This document shows, piece by piece, positions 1-19,644 of a DNA stretch of 19,644 nucleotides. The stretch's first letter is position 1. Every line of letters begins with the position of its first letter. The notes under the pieces were generated by a model that was given only the letters and a program-made list of their open reading frames with translations, was not told the origin of the DNA and did not search any database. This DNA comes from a virus. Lineage: Duplodnaviria > Heunggongvirae > Uroviricota > Caudoviricetes. The stretch covers positions 1 through 19,644 of IMG/VR virus record IMGVR_UViG_2648501186_000019, one strand, 5' to 3'. Made by a program: the position numbers and the translations under genes.

Positions 1-273
1 ATGAACATCGGTAAAGCAATCATCAACTACGCAGCACGTCGCAACATGGACATTACCTTGATTGACGATGAGACCGTGGCGTTCTGGGAAGCGGATAACG
101 ATTGTGAATGGATGTTCTCCTACATGATTGGTAATGATGGTTTCCTCCACTTTAAAGGGAATGTGTATCTGCCGCAGGAGATTAAAGAAGAATTACCAGC
201 GTGCATCGATACAGACAAGAAGCTGAAAGAAGTAATCAACTTTATCGCAAACGAGTTTATCAGCAAGAAGTAA
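1..273 (+). CDS. hypothetical protein (90 aa); ATG at window position 1, so the true start may lie upstream
   Basis: Open frame 1-273 ending in TAA at 271-273. No recognisable motifs. The antisense ORF 120-581 is judged spurious. Confidence 0.45.
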   Translation: MNIGKAIINYAARRNMDITLIDDETVAFWEADNDCEWMFSYMIGNDGFLHFKGNVYLPQEIKEELPACIDTDKKLKEVINFIANEFISKK

Positions 274-942: not shown

Positions 943-959
943 TATAAATATATCGTAAT
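943..959 (+). promoter_or_regulatory. TATAAATA box within the palindrome CGATATAAATATATCG; candidate phage (late-type) promoter
   Basis: TATAAATA at 943-950 lies 30 nt upstream of ATG 981, with the AAGAGGA Shine-Dalgarno sequence in between. The 15-nt string TAAATATATCGTAAT (945-959) recurs exactly on the - strand at 15881-15895. Confidence 0.35.
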
Positions 960-1613: not shown

Positions 1614-1650
1614 GCCCCTATCGTTATAATACACGGTAGGGGCGTTTTTG
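1614..1650 (+). terminator. rho-independent terminator candidate upstream of the recombinase gene
   Basis: Stem GCCCCTATCG pairs with CGGTAGGGGC (one G-U pair) around a 10-nt loop containing TTATAAT, followed by GTTTTTGTTT. Confidence 0.55.
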
Positions 1651-1662
1651 TTTGGAAATGGT

Positions 1663-3342
1663 ATGAAAACTAAACTGTATTCGTATATTCGCTTCTCTTC
1701 AATGAAGCAAGCGGATGGTAGTTCTTATGAACGCCAAAAGAGAACAGCCGCAGAGATAGCCGCAAAATATGACCTTGAACTGGTTACTTCCTATCAGGAT
1801 TTTGGTGTATCTGCATTCAAAGGGGCTAACAGTAGAACAGGTGCATTATCTCGTTTTCTGGATGAAATTGGTCGATCCGTTCCGGTTGGTAGCTGGCTGG
1901 TTGTGGAAAACTTAGACCGTATCTCTCGCCAATCCATCATTGAAGCACAAGAGCTATTTCTCTCGATTATCCGTAGGGGAATAACTATCGTAACTGGCAT
2001 GGATGGTAAGGTCTATAGCAAGGAATCGGTTAATGCCAATCCTATTGATTTGCTGTTGAGTGTCATGTTGTTTGCGAGAGCTAACGAGGAAAGTCAGACT
2101 AAGCGCAATCGTACTAACTCAAGCGCATTGATTAAGATTAAAGCTCATCAAGAAAATCCACAAAATCCGGCTGTTGCAATCGAGGAAATTGGAAAGAATA
2201 TGTGGTGGACTGATACCACATCTGGTTATGTGCTTCCTCATCCGGTCTTCTTCCCTATTGTTCAGGAGGTTGTGGAATTACGCAGGAATGGACGGTCAAC
2301 CGCCGAGATACTGGATCACCTTAACGCGACATACACACCACCACCAGCCGCAAGTCACAAGAGGCATTCAAACTGGTCACGGGCAATGATTGAAAGGTTG
2401 TTCCATACCCGCGCTTTGATTGGTATCAAGGAAATCTCTGTAGATGGCGTTAAGTATGAGTTAAAGGATTATTATCCTCGTGTGCTAGATGACGCTGAGT
2501 TTTATCACCTTAAGAAAAGCATTGGTGTTAGAGCATGTAACTATGGAGACAAGGAAGAAGTTAAACCTATTCCCTTGCTTAGTGGTGTTGGTCTATTGAA
2601 ATGTGAACATTGCGGTTCCGCTATGGTTAAGGTGAAAGGAACTAACAAACGTCCTAACCAATATCGTTATTCATGCGATGCAATGCGCTCTAGTCGTATT
2701 GCATGTGTGCATACAAACTGGAGTTTTCGAGGTGATCAATTAGAGAAAGCTGTATTGCAATTGCTGGCTGATAAAATCTGGATTGCTGAGGATAAGGCTA
2801 ATCCGGTTCCGGCTTTGAAAGTACAGATTGATGAAATATCACGCAAGATTGATAACCTGATTACCCTTTCTGCTATGACAGGAGCAACGAAGGAGTTAGC
2901 CGACCAGATTACTACCCTCAATAGCGAGCGTGAAACACTCTACAATCAGATTAAGATGGCAGAAGAGGAAATGTATTCTGTGGACTCTCAAGGCTGGGAG
3001 AAGCTCGCAGAATTTGATTTAGAAGATGTTTATAACGAGGATCGCATTAAGGTCCGGTTTAAGATTAAGCAAGCTCTAAAACGGATCGGGTGTAGCAGGA
3101 TTGACAAATACAAAAACTTGTTTGTACTGGAATACATTGATGGTAAGACCCAGAGAGTTGTAATAGAAAATTCAAGAGGACCGAGGAAAGGCCGGATCTT
3201 CGTTGATTTGAAGACCATCAATGATAGGCAGATTCTGGAGAGTAACGGGCTTGTTTTGCATCCATGTTTAGACATGCTGACAGATAAGAACTGGAAACCA
3301 GAAGAGGAAATACCAGGTCCATTACAGGAATTTGGAATTTAA
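1663..3342 (+). CDS. large serine recombinase (serine integrase/resolvase family), 559 aa from ATG 1663
   Basis: N-terminal catalytic motif YSYIRFSSMKQ...SYERQ (Y-x-R-x-S nucleophile region), a large central domain, a Cys-rich zinc-ribbon-like segment (CEHCGS...YSCD...IACVH) and a coiled-coil-like stretch. The track start at 1648 is TTG; ATG 1663 is preferred. Confidence 0.9.
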   Translation: MKTKLYSYIRFSSMKQADGSSYERQKRTAAEIAAKYDLELVTSYQDFGVSAFKGANSRTGALSRFLDEIGRSVPVGSWLVVENLDRISRQSIIEAQELFLSIIRRGITIVTGMDGKVYSKESVNANPIDLLLSVMLFARANEESQTKRNRTNSSALIKIKAHQENPQNPAVAIEEIGKNMWWTDTTSGYVLPHPVFFPIVQEVVELRRNGRSTAEILDHLNATYTPPPAASHKRHSNWSRAMIERLFHTRALIGIKEISVDGVKYELKDYYPRVLDDAEFYHLKKSIGVRACNYGDKEEVKPIPLLSGVGLLKCEHCGSAMVKVKGTNKRPNQYRYSCDAMRSSRIACVHTNWSFRGDQLEKAVLQLLADKIWIAEDKANPVPALKVQIDEISRKIDNLITLSAMTGATKELADQITTLNSERETLYNQIKMAEEEMYSVDSQGWEKLAEFDLEDVYNEDRIKVRFKIKQALKRIGCSRIDKYKNLFVLEYIDGKTQRVVIENSRGPRKGRIFVDLKTINDRQILESNGLVLHPCLDMLTDKNWKPEEEIPGPLQEFGI

Positions 3343-3380
3343 GCGGCCTAAATCGACGTATAACGAGCTAAAATAGTTAA

Positions 3381-3403
3381 GGGGTACAGATGTACCCCTT
3401 TTT
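3381..3403 (+). terminator. rho-independent terminator after the recombinase gene
   Basis: GGGGTAC (3381-3387), loop AGAT, GTACCCC (3392-3398), then TTTTT (3399-3403). Confidence 0.7.
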
Positions 3404-3437
3404 AATTTAATTGCGTTAGGCAGCGTAAGCAAGTTTC

Positions 3438-3474
3438 ATAGTAGTTTCCTCTAAAATAATAAGTTCACTACTAT
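3438..3474. repeat. inverted repeat ATAGTAGT / ACTACTAT with a 21-nt AT-rich spacer; CACTACT-like motif recurs at about 3492-3502 and 3559-3568
   Basis: Direct reading of the recombinase-helicase intergenic region; the two arms are exact reverse complements. Confidence 0.45.
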
Positions 3475-3618
3475 TTATCAGAGAAAATTGTCTTACTATT
3501 GCATTCTCTATCTGGATGTGGGTATAGGCGGGATTGAATACGGCAAAACTGAAACATTCCACTACTGCAATAAATCACTAAACAATATAAAGAATATTGC
3601 AAGTGTGGAGTGGAACTA

Positions 3619-5109
3619 ATGCAAGATATTAAAATTCATTTTCAAGATTACAGTTTCGTTAAGGTTGATTGCTCTCCTTCTATCGGAATGGAATTAAGAG
3701 ATTATTTCTCGTTTGAGGTTGAAGGGGCTAGGTTTAGCCCCCGTTACAAGTATTCTGGCTGGGATGGACGAATAAGACTGTTTACGCATGAAAACACCCT
3801 ACCAATTGGACTATTAAAAACGTTGGGTGTCTTCGTTAAAAATATGGGCTATTCAGTCTGGATTGACCCCAGATTGCTTGAGAAGGAAGATGTAACCAAA
3901 GACGCGATTAATGAATGGATTGATTCCTTAGAAGTGTATTCCGGTAGCAATAAAATCAATCCTTATTGGTATCAAAGGGAGGCAGTCTTTCAGGGTATCC
4001 ACAATCGCCGTAGAATGCTGGTTCTTCCTACCAGTGCCGGAAAGTCATTGATTGCTTGTATGCTGTCTCGTTGGTACTTAGAGAACTACACCGGAAAAGT
4101 GTTAATCATTGTTCCGACTACATCGCTAGTGGTTCAAATGAGGGATGATTTCATCGATTATAGGCTATTCCCTTATGAAGCAATTCATACAATGATGAGT
4201 GGTAGCGGGAAACATCCGGGAGACAGGTTAATCACGGTTAGTACATGGCAATCAGCGTGCAAGATGCCTCCTGAATGGTTCAAACAATATGGAATGTTGA
4301 TAGTTGATGAATCGCATAAGGCTAGTGCCAAAAATATTACCAATATCATTAACGGAATGAATCATTGCCAATTTAAGATCGGCATGACTGGTTCCCCTAA
4401 AGAATCAAAATGCCATCTTTTACAGTATGTCGGACTTTTCGGTGATATTTCTAAGATCGTGAGTATTGACCGCCTGATGGAAGAAGGGCAGGTGACAAAA
4501 CTGAAAATTAACTGTCTTTTCCTTCGTTATACCGATGAGGAATGTAGCGCGGTTAAGGGGCGAGAATATGCGGAAGAGATCAAGTATATTACATCTAACC
4601 CACGACGAAATAAGTTTGCTTGCAATTTGGCGCTAAAACTCGCTAAGAAGGGCGAAAACGTATTCCTGATGTTCCGCAATACTAAGCACGGAAAACTTAT
4701 GTATGATGCGTTACAGAAGGTACACGACAAGGTTTATTATATTGACGGTGGAGTTAAGACAGAAGAACGAGACGAGTTCAAAAAATTAGCGGAAGGGGAA
4801 ACAGGGATCATTTGCGTTGCATCCTATGGTGTGTTCTCTACTGGTGTTTCCATCAAGAACTTGCATCATGTTATTTTCGGTCATCCAGTGAAGGAATCAA
4901 CTATCGTTCGTCAGAGTATCGGTCGTGCATTGCGTAAACATGGTTCTAAGGATATTGCAACGGTCTGGGATCTTATAGATCATTTGTGTATATTCGGTCG
5001 TAACGGAAAAGTCAAGCATAAAAATTATGCGGTAAAACATGCACTTGAGAGAATCCGCTATTATTTGACCGACAAGTTCAGCTATGCAACTAAAACAATT
5101 GCTATATAA
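3619..5109 (+). CDS. uvsW: SF2 DNA helicase of the T4 UvsW type (497 aa from ATG 3619)
   Basis: Walker A LPTSAGKS, DExH box LIVDESHKA, motif III-like TGSP, C-terminal helicase motifs (VASYGVFSTGVSIKNLHHV, QSIGRALRKHGSK). The N-terminus MQDIKIHFQDYSFVKVDC and overall pattern track the T4 UvsW sequence as I recall it. RBS GGAG 8 nt upstream of ATG 3619; the track start at 3610 is GTG. Confidence 0.85.
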   Translation: MQDIKIHFQDYSFVKVDCSPSIGMELRDYFSFEVEGARFSPRYKYSGWDGRIRLFTHENTLPIGLLKTLGVFVKNMGYSVWIDPRLLEKEDVTKDAINEWIDSLEVYSGSNKINPYWYQREAVFQGIHNRRRMLVLPTSAGKSLIACMLSRWYLENYTGKVLIIVPTTSLVVQMRDDFIDYRLFPYEAIHTMMSGSGKHPGDRLITVSTWQSACKMPPEWFKQYGMLIVDESHKASAKNITNIINGMNHCQFKIGMTGSPKESKCHLLQYVGLFGDISKIVSIDRLMEEGQVTKLKINCLFLRYTDEECSAVKGREYAEEIKYITSNPRRNKFACNLALKLAKKGENVFLMFRNTKHGKLMYDALQKVHDKVYYIDGGVKTEERDEFKKLAEGETGIICVASYGVFSTGVSIKNLHHVIFGHPVKESTIVRQSIGRALRKHGSKDIATVWDLIDHLCIFGRNGKVKHKNYAVKHALERIRYYLTDKFSYATKTIAI

Positions 5110-5891: not shown

Positions 5892-6497
5892 TTAAACGAA
5901 GTTGATTTTACCCATGAAGTGCTTTTTCATCTTCTTCTGGATATTCTTCTTCATCGTTTTCTCATTATCTTTCCAACTACCCATGATGTTACTACGGTCT
6001 GTTTTCTTCAACACTGCAACAAGTCGCTTCCCTAGCTTTTTCTTGTTCTTCATGTCGGCTTTAACGGATGGATCGAGAAGCAGTATTTTACCAGTCTTAG
6101 ATTTTGTGGTTACATACTTCCCTATTTTCTTACCGTTTCTGAGTTGTGGAATGTTACCAAACTGGTTAGTTCGGTCATCAGTTACAGGAACAAATTTCTC
6201 AATATTATTACCACCTTCAAAGTAATATTTTAAGTATTTTTCCTGATTCTTCATGATGAAAACACTATGGTAAGACGTTTTACCGCTTGAGCGTATCCGG
6301 TTGTATGAATTGACCGCTTTCTGTGTGAACTTGGTCGGTCGATCTATCCTTGAATTGACTTTCTTCTGCAACTTTACCCGCTCATCTATGACCGCTAAAC
6401 CCAAATCCCTATGAAAGCTATTACTAGCTTTCTGTTTCCAACTCTTGATATCTTTTTTTACTTTATCAATATTGGATGTGATTATTGGATTAGCCAT
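5892..6497 (-). CDS. highly basic lysine-rich protein (201 aa), function unknown
   Basis: AGGGGG Shine-Dalgarno sequence; ATG 6497 lies 1 nt after the upstream stop. Very Lys-rich with a poly-basic C-terminus (KKNIQKKMKKHFMGK). Confidence 0.6.
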   Translation of the reverse strand: MANPIITSNIDKVKKDIKSWKQKASNSFHRDLGLAVIDERVKLQKKVNSRIDRPTKFTQKAVNSYNRIRSSGKTSYHSVFIMKNQEKYLKYYFEGGNNIEKFVPVTDDRTNQFGNIPQLRNGKKIGKYVTTKSKTGKILLLDPSVKADMKNKKKLGKRLVAVLKKTDRSNIMGSWKDNEKTMKKNIQKKMKKHFMGKINFV

Positions 6498-6967: not shown

Positions 6968-7011
6968 TACGCCCCCGATATTTTTATATAGTTTAATGGC
7001 AAAATTATTTA

Positions 7012-7054
7012 GATAAAAATAATCCCGCCTAACTCAAAAGAATTAAGCGGGATT
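7012..7054 (-). terminator. rho-independent terminator after the gpJ-like gene (- strand)
   Basis: 8-bp stem AATCCCGC / GCGGGATT (7021-7028 with 7047-7054), followed on the - strand by a U-rich run (AUUUUUAUCU). Confidence 0.6.
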
Positions 7055-11275: not shown

Positions 11276-11324
11276 GTTGAATACCTCCATGCTGTTATTT
11301 ACTAGGCTTAGGGAGAAGGGATTA

Positions 11325-12541: not shown

Positions 12542-12588
12542 AAAAGCCCCCATAGTTTTATGATTATTTATCACTATGGGGGCTTTTA
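12542..12588 (-). terminator. perfect 14-bp inverted repeat hairpin between the tape measure and gpM-like genes; attenuator/terminator candidate
   Basis: AAAAGCCCCCATAG ... CTATGGGGGCTTTT with an 18-nt AT-rich loop, an A-tract on one side and a T-tract on the other. The loop contains GATAAATA. Coordinates are +/-1. Confidence 0.5.
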
Positions 12589-15880: not shown

Positions 15881-15897
15881 ATTACGATATATTTATG
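15881..15897 (-). promoter_or_regulatory. CATAAATA box plus TATCGTAAT; second copy of the 15-nt motif seen at 945-959
   Basis: The - strand reads CATAAATATATCGTAATCATT; the box ends 31 nt upstream of ATG 15858 (30 nt at the + strand copy). It overlaps the stop codon of the 168-aa gene. Confidence 0.35.
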
Positions 15898-16399
15898 TGA
15901 TCTTTAAACTCTGCTTAGTGCCAGTCTTCTTAATGTTGGTAAGGAAAGCAGCCGGAGGATTGCTTAACCAATAGTAATGAAAACCACTTTGCATACTGTT
16001 ATAAGGAACAGTGACAGTAGCACCACCCAAATTAACGGTTATATTCCCCGCTCTACCGTTCTGGAGATATACAGCCATAGTAGGAGTACCGCCATTGAAT
16101 TGACCAACGATAACGCCAATCAGACGCCCTACGCCCACGTTTTCGGGGTTCTCCATAGATCCTTTACCGCGCATGTCAGTTACTGGATAGTTTGAAGCAG
16201 TTACACCCCAGTTATTACCCAATGAAGTAGACCACGATGCAGTAGCAACAACCGTATCCATACCACGACCACACATAGCACTCATGTTAGCTGGGCGACT
16301 AACCTTTAATGCGTTCATTGCTGCGGTCATCCATCGTTGACCAGTTACAGAAACAGCAGATGACCCGACCCAGCCGGGCTTATTAACGACATTTGCCAT
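15893..16399 (-). CDS. hypothetical tail-module protein (168 aa), Gly/Ser/Thr/Asn-rich
   Basis: GGAG Shine-Dalgarno sequence 9 nt before ATG 16399, just downstream of the terminator hairpin. Composition suggests a beta-rich structural protein; could alternatively be the tube subunit. Confidence 0.55.
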   Translation of the reverse strand: MANVVNKPGWVGSSAVSVTGQRWMTAAMNALKVSRPANMSAMCGRGMDTVVATASWSTSLGNNWGVTASNYPVTDMRGKGSMENPENVGVGRLIGVIVGQFNGGTPTMAVYLQNGRAGNITVNLGGATVTVPYNSMQSGFHYYWLSNPPAAFLTNIKKTGTKQSLKIT

Positions 16400-17106: not shown

Positions 17107-19644
17107 TTATTTAGTTGCTTTCAGTTCGGCTAATTCAGCTTTAGTTTCGGCAAGTTCTTTAGCCATAGCATCAAACTTAGCGGTCATTTCCTGCATTGCT
17201 TTGATGATTAAAGCATTGACAGCAGAGTTAGAAATAGTCTTGATTGCTTCTGGATGTTCTGGATCTTCGGTGGATTGAATACCTACTGCTTCCGGCAATA
17301 CTTTTTCCAGATCCTGAGCAATAATACCTACTTCGCGTTTAATTACTGTGTCATCAGAAAGAGATTTAACTTTATCGTAGGTGTAGACTTTCAGGGAGTT
17401 TACTTTCTCTAATGCGCCGTCCTGTAATTCTTCCTTGTTAATTTTCAAACGGGAGTCGGAGCGAATGTAAACATCGTTAAAGCTACCGTTACGACCTGCG
17501 GTAAAGTCACCAGAGGCGTTAAAGTCAAAAGTTGCATCGTGTACGTGCATACGCACCATAGCATTACCGATAGTACCGCTAGGAACATGTACACCCATTG
17601 CTGCGATATGATATTTACCTTGATGGGTTGCTTTCCATACGTTATGAGCGGAATCGGTTGATTGTTGACAGTCGACCTGAATACCAGAAGCACGATCACG
17701 CCAGCTAGCCCAACTACCACCAGCAACGCTACCACGAATAAGACCATTACCGCCACCGGATACAGTGCCCGTTTCAAGGTGAATCATCTTACCGCCGAAT
17801 TTCCAGACTTCGGTTTGTTTCTCACCACGGAAGCGAATAACACCAGCGTCATCGCAATACATCAAGCCCAACTCTAAACCGTTTGGATCTCTAAACCAGA
17901 TGTGCTTATTGCCAGCGCGTTTAAACGAAATATCAGCACCAGTTGTTGTGATATTGCTAGCAACGTTTAGACTACCCGCCATAGAGAACAGAATAGGTCC
18001 AGTGCCACCCTGAGTACGTTCAGTATACCAGTGATAACTTGTAGCATCCTTACATTCAAAAACCTGTTTGCGTTGCTCGTTACCCCATGTGTGTAAGGTA
18101 AATTGAGACTGCGACCCCCGATTAGCATCAAATGCAATTTCACCAGATTCTACACGTACAAAGCCTTTAAAACGTGCAGTAATATTTCCGGTTTCATCAT
18201 TGCGTTCAGTAGAGAAATGTATACCTGTTGGGTCTTCTATTTGAAGAATGTTGTGTCGTCCACTGGCACTATCACCCAAATGGTTTATTTTCATGAAACC
18301 GCTAGCACCCTGACGCCCACTAGAAAAATGAAGAAATCCTTTTTCTACATAAACATCACCAGCAAAACGAGCAGCACGACTTGCACGTTCTAAGACTAAT
18401 GCACCTTCGTTACCATCACCACCCAAAGTAACATTACCGCTACCAAGATGGTAAATGAACGGACGATAGCCGTTCCAACTACCAAATTTATCATTTTCGG
18501 CAGTAGACAGAAGATATACGTTTTGACCATCATTACGCCAGAATGCACCATAGTTACCGTAAATCATACGGAATGCATCACTGTTAGCAGCTACATATTG
18601 ACCATTGGTGTATACAATTTTGGTAGCACCTGTGCTTAAAGATACTTGACCACTTGCTTCTAATTTAACAAAGTTTTTACCTTCGTCACTATACCATTGA
18701 AAATCGTTAGTATCTGTAGAACCAAAACCAAACCAGCCTTGACGTTTATTAGCCCCGTTTCGCTGATCCATATATTCAAAATAGTTACTACGACCAGTAG
18801 GACGCCACATACGAATCGCGTTATTGCCTTGCAGATGAAGTCTATCGACAAATAAACCATCACTACCAACAATTTTTAATACTTCTTTTTGGTCGGTGGA
18901 ACCAGTAGCCAAACGATACACATCACCTTGAACAGTTTCATGCCATATTGTTTCCGCCGCACGACTGCGGAATTTACGCATATATTTTTTATTGTTGTCT
19001 GGTACGTTATTAAGGCTCACAATATCATAGGTTGCTTGTGAGTTATTATCAAACATCAACGTTCCGGCTTTGTTTTCGGTGTTGAACATCGTAATAACAC
19101 GAGCATCGGTAACACCAACAGAAGGTTTAACGAGAGTTAATTCAGGAACATCATGTACTGTCAGAGTAACGCCATCAGTTTTACCGTATTCGACAATAAC
19201 GTTATCGGTGTAACGACCGTAGTTAACGTAGATATCGTAGTTATCACCGGAAGTATTAACCGCAAATACTTGATGAGTATTTTTAGAATTTCGACGATAC
19301 GCCGCAATACTAACGCCTTTCGGGTTATTGTTACCGGAACGGATGACAATTTCTACAAAGTCAACCTGATCATAAGAGTTAACGTTATAACCATTACCAC
19401 CGAAGATACGAAGCATTACCATTCGACCATTCTGTGGGATCGTAGCGGTTGCGATCTTGAAGTATCCACGAGTAGCATCACCAGAAGGAACGGTCATTCT
19501 AACGTTCTTGATGAACATCTTATCAACTTCGGCTTTGGTGTATGCACCAATCTCGCCAGGAGTCGGCTTATCACCTTCGTGATACATCTTATAGCTAAAG
19601 TTCTTCTGTCCTTCTCTATCAAAACCATAGGTTTCAACACGAGA
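17107..19644 (-). CDS. tail or neck fibre protein with a C-terminal intramolecular chaperone (peptidase S74-like) domain; 5'-partial, open to the window edge
   Basis: The frame stays open to 19644 (SRVETYGFDREGQKNFSYK precedes the first Met). The C-terminus (...YIRSDSRLKINKEELQDGALEKVNSLKVYTYDK...VGIIAQDLEKVLPEAV...AELKATK) matches the autoproteolytic chaperone domain of T5 pb1-type L-shaped fibres and endosialidases. The upstream body is Gly/Asn/Thr-rich, beta-type. Confidence 0.85.
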   Translation of the reverse strand, partial: SRVETYGFDREGQKNFSYKMYHEGDKPTPGEIGAYTKAEVDKMFIKNVRMTVPSGDATRGYFKIATATIPQNGRMVMLRIFGGNGYNVNSYDQVDFVEIVIRSGNNNPKGVSIAAYRRNSKNTHQVFAVNTSGDNYDIYVNYGRYTDNVIVEYGKTDGVTLTVHDVPELTLVKPSVGVTDARVITMFNTENKAGTLMFDNNSQATYDIVSLNNVPDNNKKYMRKFRSRAAETIWHETVQGDVYRLATGSTDQKEVLKIVGSDGLFVDRLHLQGNNAIRMWRPTGRSNYFEYMDQRNGANKRQGWFGFGSTDTNDFQWYSDEGKNFVKLEASGQVSLSTGATKIVYTNGQYVAANSDAFRMIYGNYGAFWRNDGQNVYLLSTAENDKFGSWNGYRPFIYHLGSGNVTLGGDGNEGALVLERASRAARFAGDVYVEKGFLHFSSGRQGASGFMKINHLGDSASGRHNILQIEDPTGIHFSTERNDETGNITARFKGFVRVESGEIAFDANRGSQSQFTLHTWGNEQRKQVFECKDATSYHWYTERTQGGTGPILFSMAGSLNVASNITTTGADISFKRAGNKHIWFRDPNGLELGLMYCDDAGVIRFRGEKQTEVWKFGGKMIHLETGTVSGGGNGLIRGSVAGGSWASWRDRASGIQVDCQQSTDSAHNVWKATHQGKYHIAAMGVHVPSGTIGNAMVRMHVHDATFDFNASGDFTAGRNGSFNDVYIRSDSRLKINKEELQDGALEKVNSLKVYTYDKVKSLSDDTVIKREVGIIAQDLEKVLPEAVGIQSTEDPEHPEAIKTISNSAVNALIIKAMQEMTAKFDAMAKELAETKAELAELKATK

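Follow-up and report, generated by a model that had tools for sequence, protein, structure and literature searches.

The 19,644-nt window analysed here, which spans the left half of a temperate siphovirus, 38-40 kb in size, of E. coli, Salmonella and Proteus, carries a short box, nTAAATA and mostly ATAAATA, of a kind that precedes most operons of this prophage family, and the boxes are predicted from sequence, at a probability of roughly 0.85, to be promoters. They had been proposed, in a reading of the sequence only, to be T4-late-like and independent of a -35 element. Their anatomy, their strand-specific intergenic placement, the fixed distance to a start codon and their conservation all sustain that proposal. 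Restriction to late genes did not hold up: in complete members of the family, boxes also precede the 200-aa, 74/75-aa, 152/157-aa, Rha-like and small terminase genes, and variable-region genes, and, as regulatory, packaging and accessory genes are thereby served, the box looks like a general phage promoter rather than one of a late class.

Why should such a short element merit attention? On the evidence of a literature search, descriptions of T4-type late promoters have up to now been confined to gp55-carrying large lytic phages, i.e., T4-like, ViI-like, rV5-like and jumbo phages, and all the papers found to mention TATAAATA late promoters deal with large lytic phages. What is new is that a small temperate siphovirus without the known machinery has T4-late-type anatomy for its general promoter, and this would point either to -10-only specificity factors of an unrecognised family, acting with E. 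coli RNA polymerase, or to regulatory cross-talk between prophage and T4-like phage. For annotation of this prophage family there is a working rule, namely that operons start 20-40 nt downstream of nTAAATA.

The gene labels first given to the window needed partial correction, the DNA being that of a temperate siphovirus prophage and not of a T4-like phage. Its plus strand has small ORFs, a large serine recombinase gene (1648-3342) and a gene for a uvsW-type helicase (3619-5109, a uvsW orthologue). On the minus strand are lysis genes and genes for a lambda-J-like tip protein, tape measure, chaperone and major tail protein, together with a gp37-type fibre (in 17107-19644, a homologue of the gp37 distal subunit) and a gp38-type adhesin (the 168-aa protein of 15893-16399). 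Of 5,426 complete E. coli genomes, 62 carry related prophages. In STEC1575 the prophage interrupts ycdX, in RMDEC332 a close relative of it interrupts hicB, and the Salmonella and Proteus copies adjoin a truncated PHP-domain gene resembling E. coli ycdX. The left end of the window (1-20) all but coincides with the prophage end, position 1 aligning 40 nt from the truncated ycdX of STEC1575. Genes of the type expected for autonomy are present, with an integrase, a terminase and a complete head, tail and lysis set, as are iterons, a Rep-like tandem winged-helix protein and the element's own repressor-type sigma-70 control points. Of this siphovirus clade the 50,697 phage records include no isolate, save for a module in the mixed record DCP80 considered below, and no paper on the prophage family or on DCP80 was found.

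The observation that drew attention to the box, a 15-mer, TAAATATATCGTAAT, ahead of genes on opposite strands, is correct. Exact copies are at 945-959 (+) and 15881-15895 (-), with no third copy in the window at up to 3 mismatches, and the full shared stretch is 16 nt, ATAAATATATCGTAAT (944-959 and 15881-15896). The base before it is T in one case, giving TATAAATA (943-950), and C in the other, giving CATAAATA (15897-15890), and from the end of the box to the ATG is 30 nt (ATG 981) and 31 nt (ATG 15858), just as had been reported. At the first site the box and core, as far as the putative start at T956/A957 (943-959, +), stand before the gene of a 113-aa membrane protein (981-1322), and box and leader are kept in about 14 relatives, there ahead of a different first gene. 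Stopping 4 nt before this box is an unannotated 41-aa ORF (814-939, +) with a hydrophobic C-terminus (…IDLIGAVVFGLVISINF), whose product may be a small membrane peptide. At the second site the box and identical core (15881-15897, -), with a putative start near A15883, stand before the tail assembly chaperone gene (15858-15550). The leaders of these two sites have no significant RNA structure, and there is no Rfam match.

The other two of the four nATAAATA boxes originally noticed are likewise where they were said to be. One, CATAAATA at 5889-5882 (-), is 28 nt before ATG 5853 of a 115-aa gene (5853-5506), in whose leader the box is followed by a hairpin that includes the ribosome-binding site (-15.3 kcal/mol, z -3.3). 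The other, GATAAATA at 12572-12565 (-), is in the loop, 16 nt long, of a strong terminator-type hairpin that follows the tape-measure gene (12542-12588, -; -24.7 kcal/mol, z -6.35) and 26 nt before the distal-tail-protein gene (12538-11978). To these can be added a fifth ATAAATA, at 3478-3472 (-), and three nTAAATA variants, at 7012-7006, 11302-11296 and 17114-17108 (all -), that were absent from the sequence-only reading. The fifth is part of GATAAATA (3479-3472), which with the leader cassette GTAGTGAACTT...TTTTAGAGGAAACTACT (3416-3479, -) leads only to a 7-codon ORF (3439-3416), downstream of which is a bidirectional terminator (3379-3400). As cassettes of this type precede full-length variable-region genes in relatives, the one here looks like a remnant of gene replacement. 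Among the variants, CTAAATA at 7012-7006 follows a terminator (7054-7021; the unit is 7006-7054, -) and is 38 nt before a 92-aa gene (6967-6689), the first of the lysis region; the same arrangement is found in a relative, L207. The remaining two are weaker candidates, both kept in L207: GTAAATA (11296-11302, -) is 20 nt before ATG 11275 of a DUF6950 tail gene, and CTAAATA (17108-17114, -), 57 nt upstream of the gene for the major tail protein (17050-16574), overlaps the gp37-like fibre gene at its stop codon.

Where a box comes right after a terminator, or in its loop, transcription from upstream is expected to stop and to restart there. A terminator-type hairpin before the serine recombinase gene 1648-3342 (1611-1646, +; -22.7 kcal/mol, z -5.1) has the same box-in-loop design as that of 12542-12588, but with a canonical -10, the sigma-70-type TATAAT, in its loop. 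In both, the design would halt incoming transcripts and restart transcription on the spot.

How much of this could be coincidence? The repeat alone proves little, since in random windows (first-order Markov) a repeated 16-mer occurs in 12.5%, and a repeated 15-mer in 38.5%; the 16-mer is also present in many viral contigs, mostly as unrelated chance matches. Comparison of motif count with shuffled expectation, the check that had been suggested, gave a divided answer. Over-representation there is none, the motif being rarer than chance, with 5 ATAAATA in the window against 7.0 expected and 10 TAAATA against 22.1 +/- 4.6, every shuffle having at least 10. Placement, on the other hand, is non-random. 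Seven of the 10 TAAATA are 15-60 nt upstream of a same-strand start, compared to 8.4% for AT-only hexamers (binomial P = 2.8e-6), and by such placement TAAATA ranks first of the 64 AT-only hexamers. A sequence that is depleted elsewhere and kept before genes looks like a short functional signal.

The complete-genome test was on the STEC1575 prophage of 38,014 nt. All 13 of its ATAAATA are non-coding, with 7 of them 25-34 nt before a same-strand ATG, and, terminator words aside, TAAATA and ATAAATA are its most intergenic-enriched k-mers. TAAATA is there 20 times sense-intergenic, once antisense-intergenic and 9 times coding, while TAAATT, TAAATC and TAAATG are mostly coding (for TAAATT, 4 sense, 4 antisense and 32 coding). 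In 44 kb of flanking E. coli chromosome, which served as the host control, just 1 of 32 TAAATA and none of 10 ATAAATA are so placed.

Alignment of 46 non-redundant sites reveals the anatomy. The claim that no -35 element accompanies the boxes was upheld, as information content is approximately zero from -50 to -5, and at none of the boxes is there a sigma-70-type promoter match. There is also no conserved upstream column of the sort that an activator site would give, and nTAAATA is the sole conserved determinant, though there is a preference for T at the second base ahead of the box. The base ahead of ATAAATA is unbiased in the prophage family (A6 C7 G7 T6). Downstream, T is at box+5 in 29 of the 46 and a purine at box+6 in 34, and we infer that this T/purine pair, 5-7 nt downstream, is a start-site signature at the distance appropriate for a -10-type element. 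The two 15-mer sites have the signature shifted by one base (G-T-A), so that the 15-mer would span from the box to about +3, i.e., the whole core promoter, if the start is where predicted. The start codon is mostly 20-40 nt past the box. The TG consensus of extended -10 promoters is not in evidence, with G at the -14 equivalent in only 12 of 46, and the base after TAAAT is A; some sites read GTTATAAATA and carry the extended -10 G, and several regulatory-region sites are cGTTATAAATA, with G at -14.

Relatives preserve the box while its surroundings change. Chaperone alleles that are 65-70% identical have different flanks and yet keep an nTAAATA box (CTAAATA or ATAAATA), and the box of the DCP80 chaperone homologue is TATAAATA. 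The box in the loop before the distal tail protein gene is kept in STEC1575 although the rest of the loop differs, and in another relative, L049, CTAAATA is in the loop of a different hairpin. Ahead of the 115-aa gene the box does not vary in any of the relatives. In the DCP80 module a terminator and TATAAATA precede the homologues of the major-tail, chaperone and 115-aa genes. In Salmonella and Proteus nTAAATA precedes the large terminase, 200-aa, head and small terminase genes, among others. Even metagenomic relatives at 46-57% identity keep the boxes, including pairs that face outwards in divergent intergenic regions of about 50 bp. Such outward-facing boxes are found between the terminase and 200-aa genes, and in L046, L214 and L222, and they exclude an RNA-processing signal fed from upstream.

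Elsewhere in the family genomes are a few canonical sigma-70 promoters accompanied by TTGACA repeats or palindromes, e.g., TTGACA-17-TATAAT, and TTGACA-17-TATACT overlapping the palindrome TTGACATCTGTCAA. With these and the boxes in one genome, there are two distinct promoter classes. Across the window sigma-70-type matches are rarer than in shuffles (28 versus 49.5 +/- 6.8), and terminator-like hairpins, which separate many of the structural genes, are commoner (29 versus 15.3 +/- 3.6). In STEC1575 a 1.4 kb non-coding region (L009 33780-35240) has five iterons (TGGAATCTTGGGGA) and three longer repeats, sigma-70 promoters with the TTGACATCTGTCAA palindrome, and two TATAAATA boxes, both with a hairpin and T-run downstream. 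The unit of box and hairpin ahead of the 60-71-aa gene, which Salmonella and Proteus retain, is a possible attenuator or small RNA.

T4 late promoters are read by host RNA polymerase together with gp55, gp33 and the gp45 sliding clamp. The resemblance to them is extensive: a TAAATA core, no -35 or other upstream element, short leaders to the ATG, a pyrimidine/purine start about 6 nt past the box (a putative start in the present case) and frequent location right after terminators. T4, the Gaprivervirus parts of DCP80, Krischvirus JSE and the prophage family have in common the box and an N2-4-GTA start context, and an ATG distance of 25-35 nt is common to the late promoters of T4, DCP80 Gaprivervirus and JSE and to the prophage sites. 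The differences are that this is a 38-40 kb temperate siphovirus without detectable gp55, gp33 or gp45, that genes other than late ones are also served, and that the first box base is not biased to T, as it is in 11 of 12 T4/Gaprivervirus sites, JSE having A or T. The T4 late consensus is TATAAATA at -13 to -6, but in RB49 and others there is little conservation of the -13 T, with A or T as the first box position in Krischvirus RB49 and with CTAAATA in the late promoters of Aeromonas phage Aeh1 (PMC1524935). So the degeneracy of the first one or two positions here, CTAAATA variants included, has a counterpart in the (A/T)(A/C)TAAATA of RB49/JSE and in Aeh1, as do back-to-back divergent boxes, such as the JSE pair between inh and uvsW; unlike the present element, these diverged T4-like phages all encode gp55, and late promoters were found in them only before late-gene orthologues (PMC1524935).

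Other known systems are less similar. Extended -10 (TGnTATAAT) sigma-70 promoters also work without a -35, and some of the present sites carry G at the equivalent of -14, but the TG consensus is lacking, A replaces the essential -7 T and it is the 3' ATA that is best conserved. The late promoters of Mu (C/Mor), P2 (Ogr) and P1 (Lpa) are those of temperate phages, have a poor or absent -35 and need a phage product. However, they consist of an upstream activator site (about -40 to -55, or -22) and a sigma-70-type -10, whereas in the present case there is no conservation upstream of the box. Motifs for H-NS, IHF and sigma-28, judged by eye against their consensus sequences, do not fit.

Is there then a gp55/gp33-like factor, for which the sequence-only reading proposed a search of the rest of the genome? 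Complete prophage copies and about 75 related loci yielded none. For gp55, tblastn gave no match, hhalign against 233 ORF families gave probabilities of at most 1.2%, an HMM against 6,161 ORFs had a best E of 1.5 (positive control 4.9e-83), and metagenomic relatives were negative. With gp33 (T4, DCP80) and gp45 as queries, all phmmer matches among 6,748 family ORFs had E > 1. The regulatory region has mainly ORFs without known relatives: Pfam and PHROGs searches with 20 of its proteins were uninformative, a Rha/Ant-like protein and a small terminase of Nu1 type excepted, and PDB sequence searches with three of them yielded nothing. The stretches of distant relatives that were covered contained no regulatory proteins in common. 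A 200-aa protein encoded beside the terminase gene is predicted to consist of two winged-helix domains in tandem (pLDDT 74), for which no PDB fold is a significant match; as a sigma-like factor it was rejected, the predicted fold not being sigma-like, and in view of the five iterons nearby it may be an iteron-binding Rep. The model of a 320-aa protein was unusable (pLDDT 41). Another protein considered as a conserved reader candidate, of 201 aa (5892-6497, -), lysine-rich, encoded between holin-like genes and the endolysin gene and without a direct family match, was set aside as a remote minor-tail or tail-completion protein, its 30 remote homologues having the PHROG labels 'minor tail protein' (20/30) and 'tail completion or Neck1' (10/30).

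How, then, might the boxes be read? The reading that we favour, though at somewhat less than even odds, is that they are a class recognised by means of a phage-specified factor unrelated to gp55. Early genes driven by sigma-70 would provide this specificity factor, which would have no sequence homology to T4 gp55, and host RNA polymerase with it would transcribe from the boxes. With the sigma-70 holoenzyme the boxes would probably be silent, as TAAATA is without the -7 T and canonical promoters are present at a few control points. The apparent autonomy of the element, and its separate sigma-70 control points with operator-like repeats, are the reasons for favouring it. Against it, evolution of an unrelated factor toward a near-T4-type promoter is not parsimonious, and the candidate was not found among the regulatory-region proteins. 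Besides, while sigma-70 needs a T at -7, some -10 elements lacking it are usable, and the GTTATAAATA sites have an extended -10 G. One alternative is that no new factor is involved and that the boxes are weak sigma-70 promoters, -10-only or partly extended -10 (TATAAA or TAAATA), active on supercoiled AT-rich DNA or by way of a conventional phage activator. In both its parts we consider that alternative unlikely. TATAAA does match TATAAT at 5 of 6 positions, G is at -14 in the cGTTATAAATA sites and the search for an alternative factor came up empty; but A is at the critical position of the -7 T, TAAATT is not enriched upstream of genes, the sites in aggregate have neither a TG motif nor a -35, proper sigma-70 promoters form a class of their own and the flanking E. 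coli genes do not use the box. Moreover, if about 15 promoters were open to sigma-70, an operator at every one of them would be required to keep the lytic genes off, and a shared operator was not seen. That the boxes are an RNA-level motif instead, for instance an AU-rich site of RNase E processing or a signal for translation within polycistronic mRNA, is very improbable. Strand specificity, intergenic position and fixed distance to the start would also suit such a motif, and stable hairpins do follow several boxes. Nevertheless, the outward boxes in short divergent regions have no upstream transcript, boxes follow terminators, the T/purine signature is at start-site distance and the 15-mer leaders are without significant structure or Rfam match. 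As for mere chance matches in AT-rich intergenic DNA, the 12-38% expectation of a 15-16-nt repeat in random windows and the occurrence of the 16-mer in many unrelated viral contigs are what it has in its favour, and the positional and strand statistics against AT-only k-mers, the host-flank control and conservation across genera make it hardly credible.

A further alternative takes the likeness to T4 literally. The boxes would be T4-type late promoters read by the gp55, gp33 and gp45 of a superinfecting T4-like phage, e.g., a Krischvirus, whose DNA is unmodified, and infection would switch the prophage on, wholly or partly, as piracy or as defence. The clade would then be a complete siphovirus parasitising or sensing T4-like infection, with nearly its whole genome on T4-type late promoters, and with its receptor-binding fibre and adhesin genes taken from Krischvirus-type phages. 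We think both the switch by infection and the ensuing view of the clade quite unlikely, even if several features are in accord. Box, start context, spacing and back-to-back design match JSE late promoters, the family itself is without gp55, gp33 and gp45, and genes have been exchanged with Krischvirus (gp37, uvsW and the gp38-type adhesin, and in relatives the uvsW.1 cassette). No free isolate is known from the records, and the mixed record DCP80 also has T4-like gp55, gp33 and gp45. Krischvirus is without hydroxymethyl-C and endonuclease IV, and it transduces resident DNA (PMC12115623). Weighing in the other direction are the apparent autonomy of the element (integrase, Rep-like protein, terminase, virion and lysis genes, sigma-70 control), a first box position that is unbiased as against T in T4/Gaprivervirus and A/T in JSE, and the scrambled state of DCP80, in which co-occurrence may be contamination. 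Were this alternative right, the closest parallel would be the helper-dependent satellites P4, PICIs and PLE, also integrated elements activated by another phage; these, however, are without a full set of virion genes and answer to specific helper proteins, and a response through a shared promoter class is not known from them.

Two aspects of the T4-like connection merit separate description. At 77-84% nucleotide identity to Krischvirus, the gp37-type fibre and uvsW-type helicase are the only parts with T4-like resemblance. In the relatives L025 and L207 the Krischvirus uvsW.1 cassette is present almost verbatim, including its own AATAAATA late promoter, the JSE uvsW.1 leader and box being nearly identical to that of the prophage-relative cassette. 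The other aspect is 'Escherichia phage DCP80' (PQ671644.1; 141 kb, filed under Gaprivervirus; loci L001, L012, L050, L082 and L083), in which a siphovirus module of about 25 kb, with head, tail and lysis genes, is the only relative of the head and tail genes among the 50,697 phage records. That module is absent from all other phage records and from complete E. coli genomes. The rest of DCP80 is scrambled T4-like pieces, with three rIIA, two primase and two spackle genes, and it looks like a mis-assembled mixture. As a linkage of the siphovirus module with gp55 it was rejected for being such a scrambled mixture.

Finally, the head-tail operon of some relatives has, at differing places, free-standing homing-endonuclease-like ORFs of 345-422 aa (L002 3571-4655, L004 4945-6249 and L006 10664-11979), with faint or weak matches to DUF723, CapR and MUG113, and each of them has its own cGATAAATA box.
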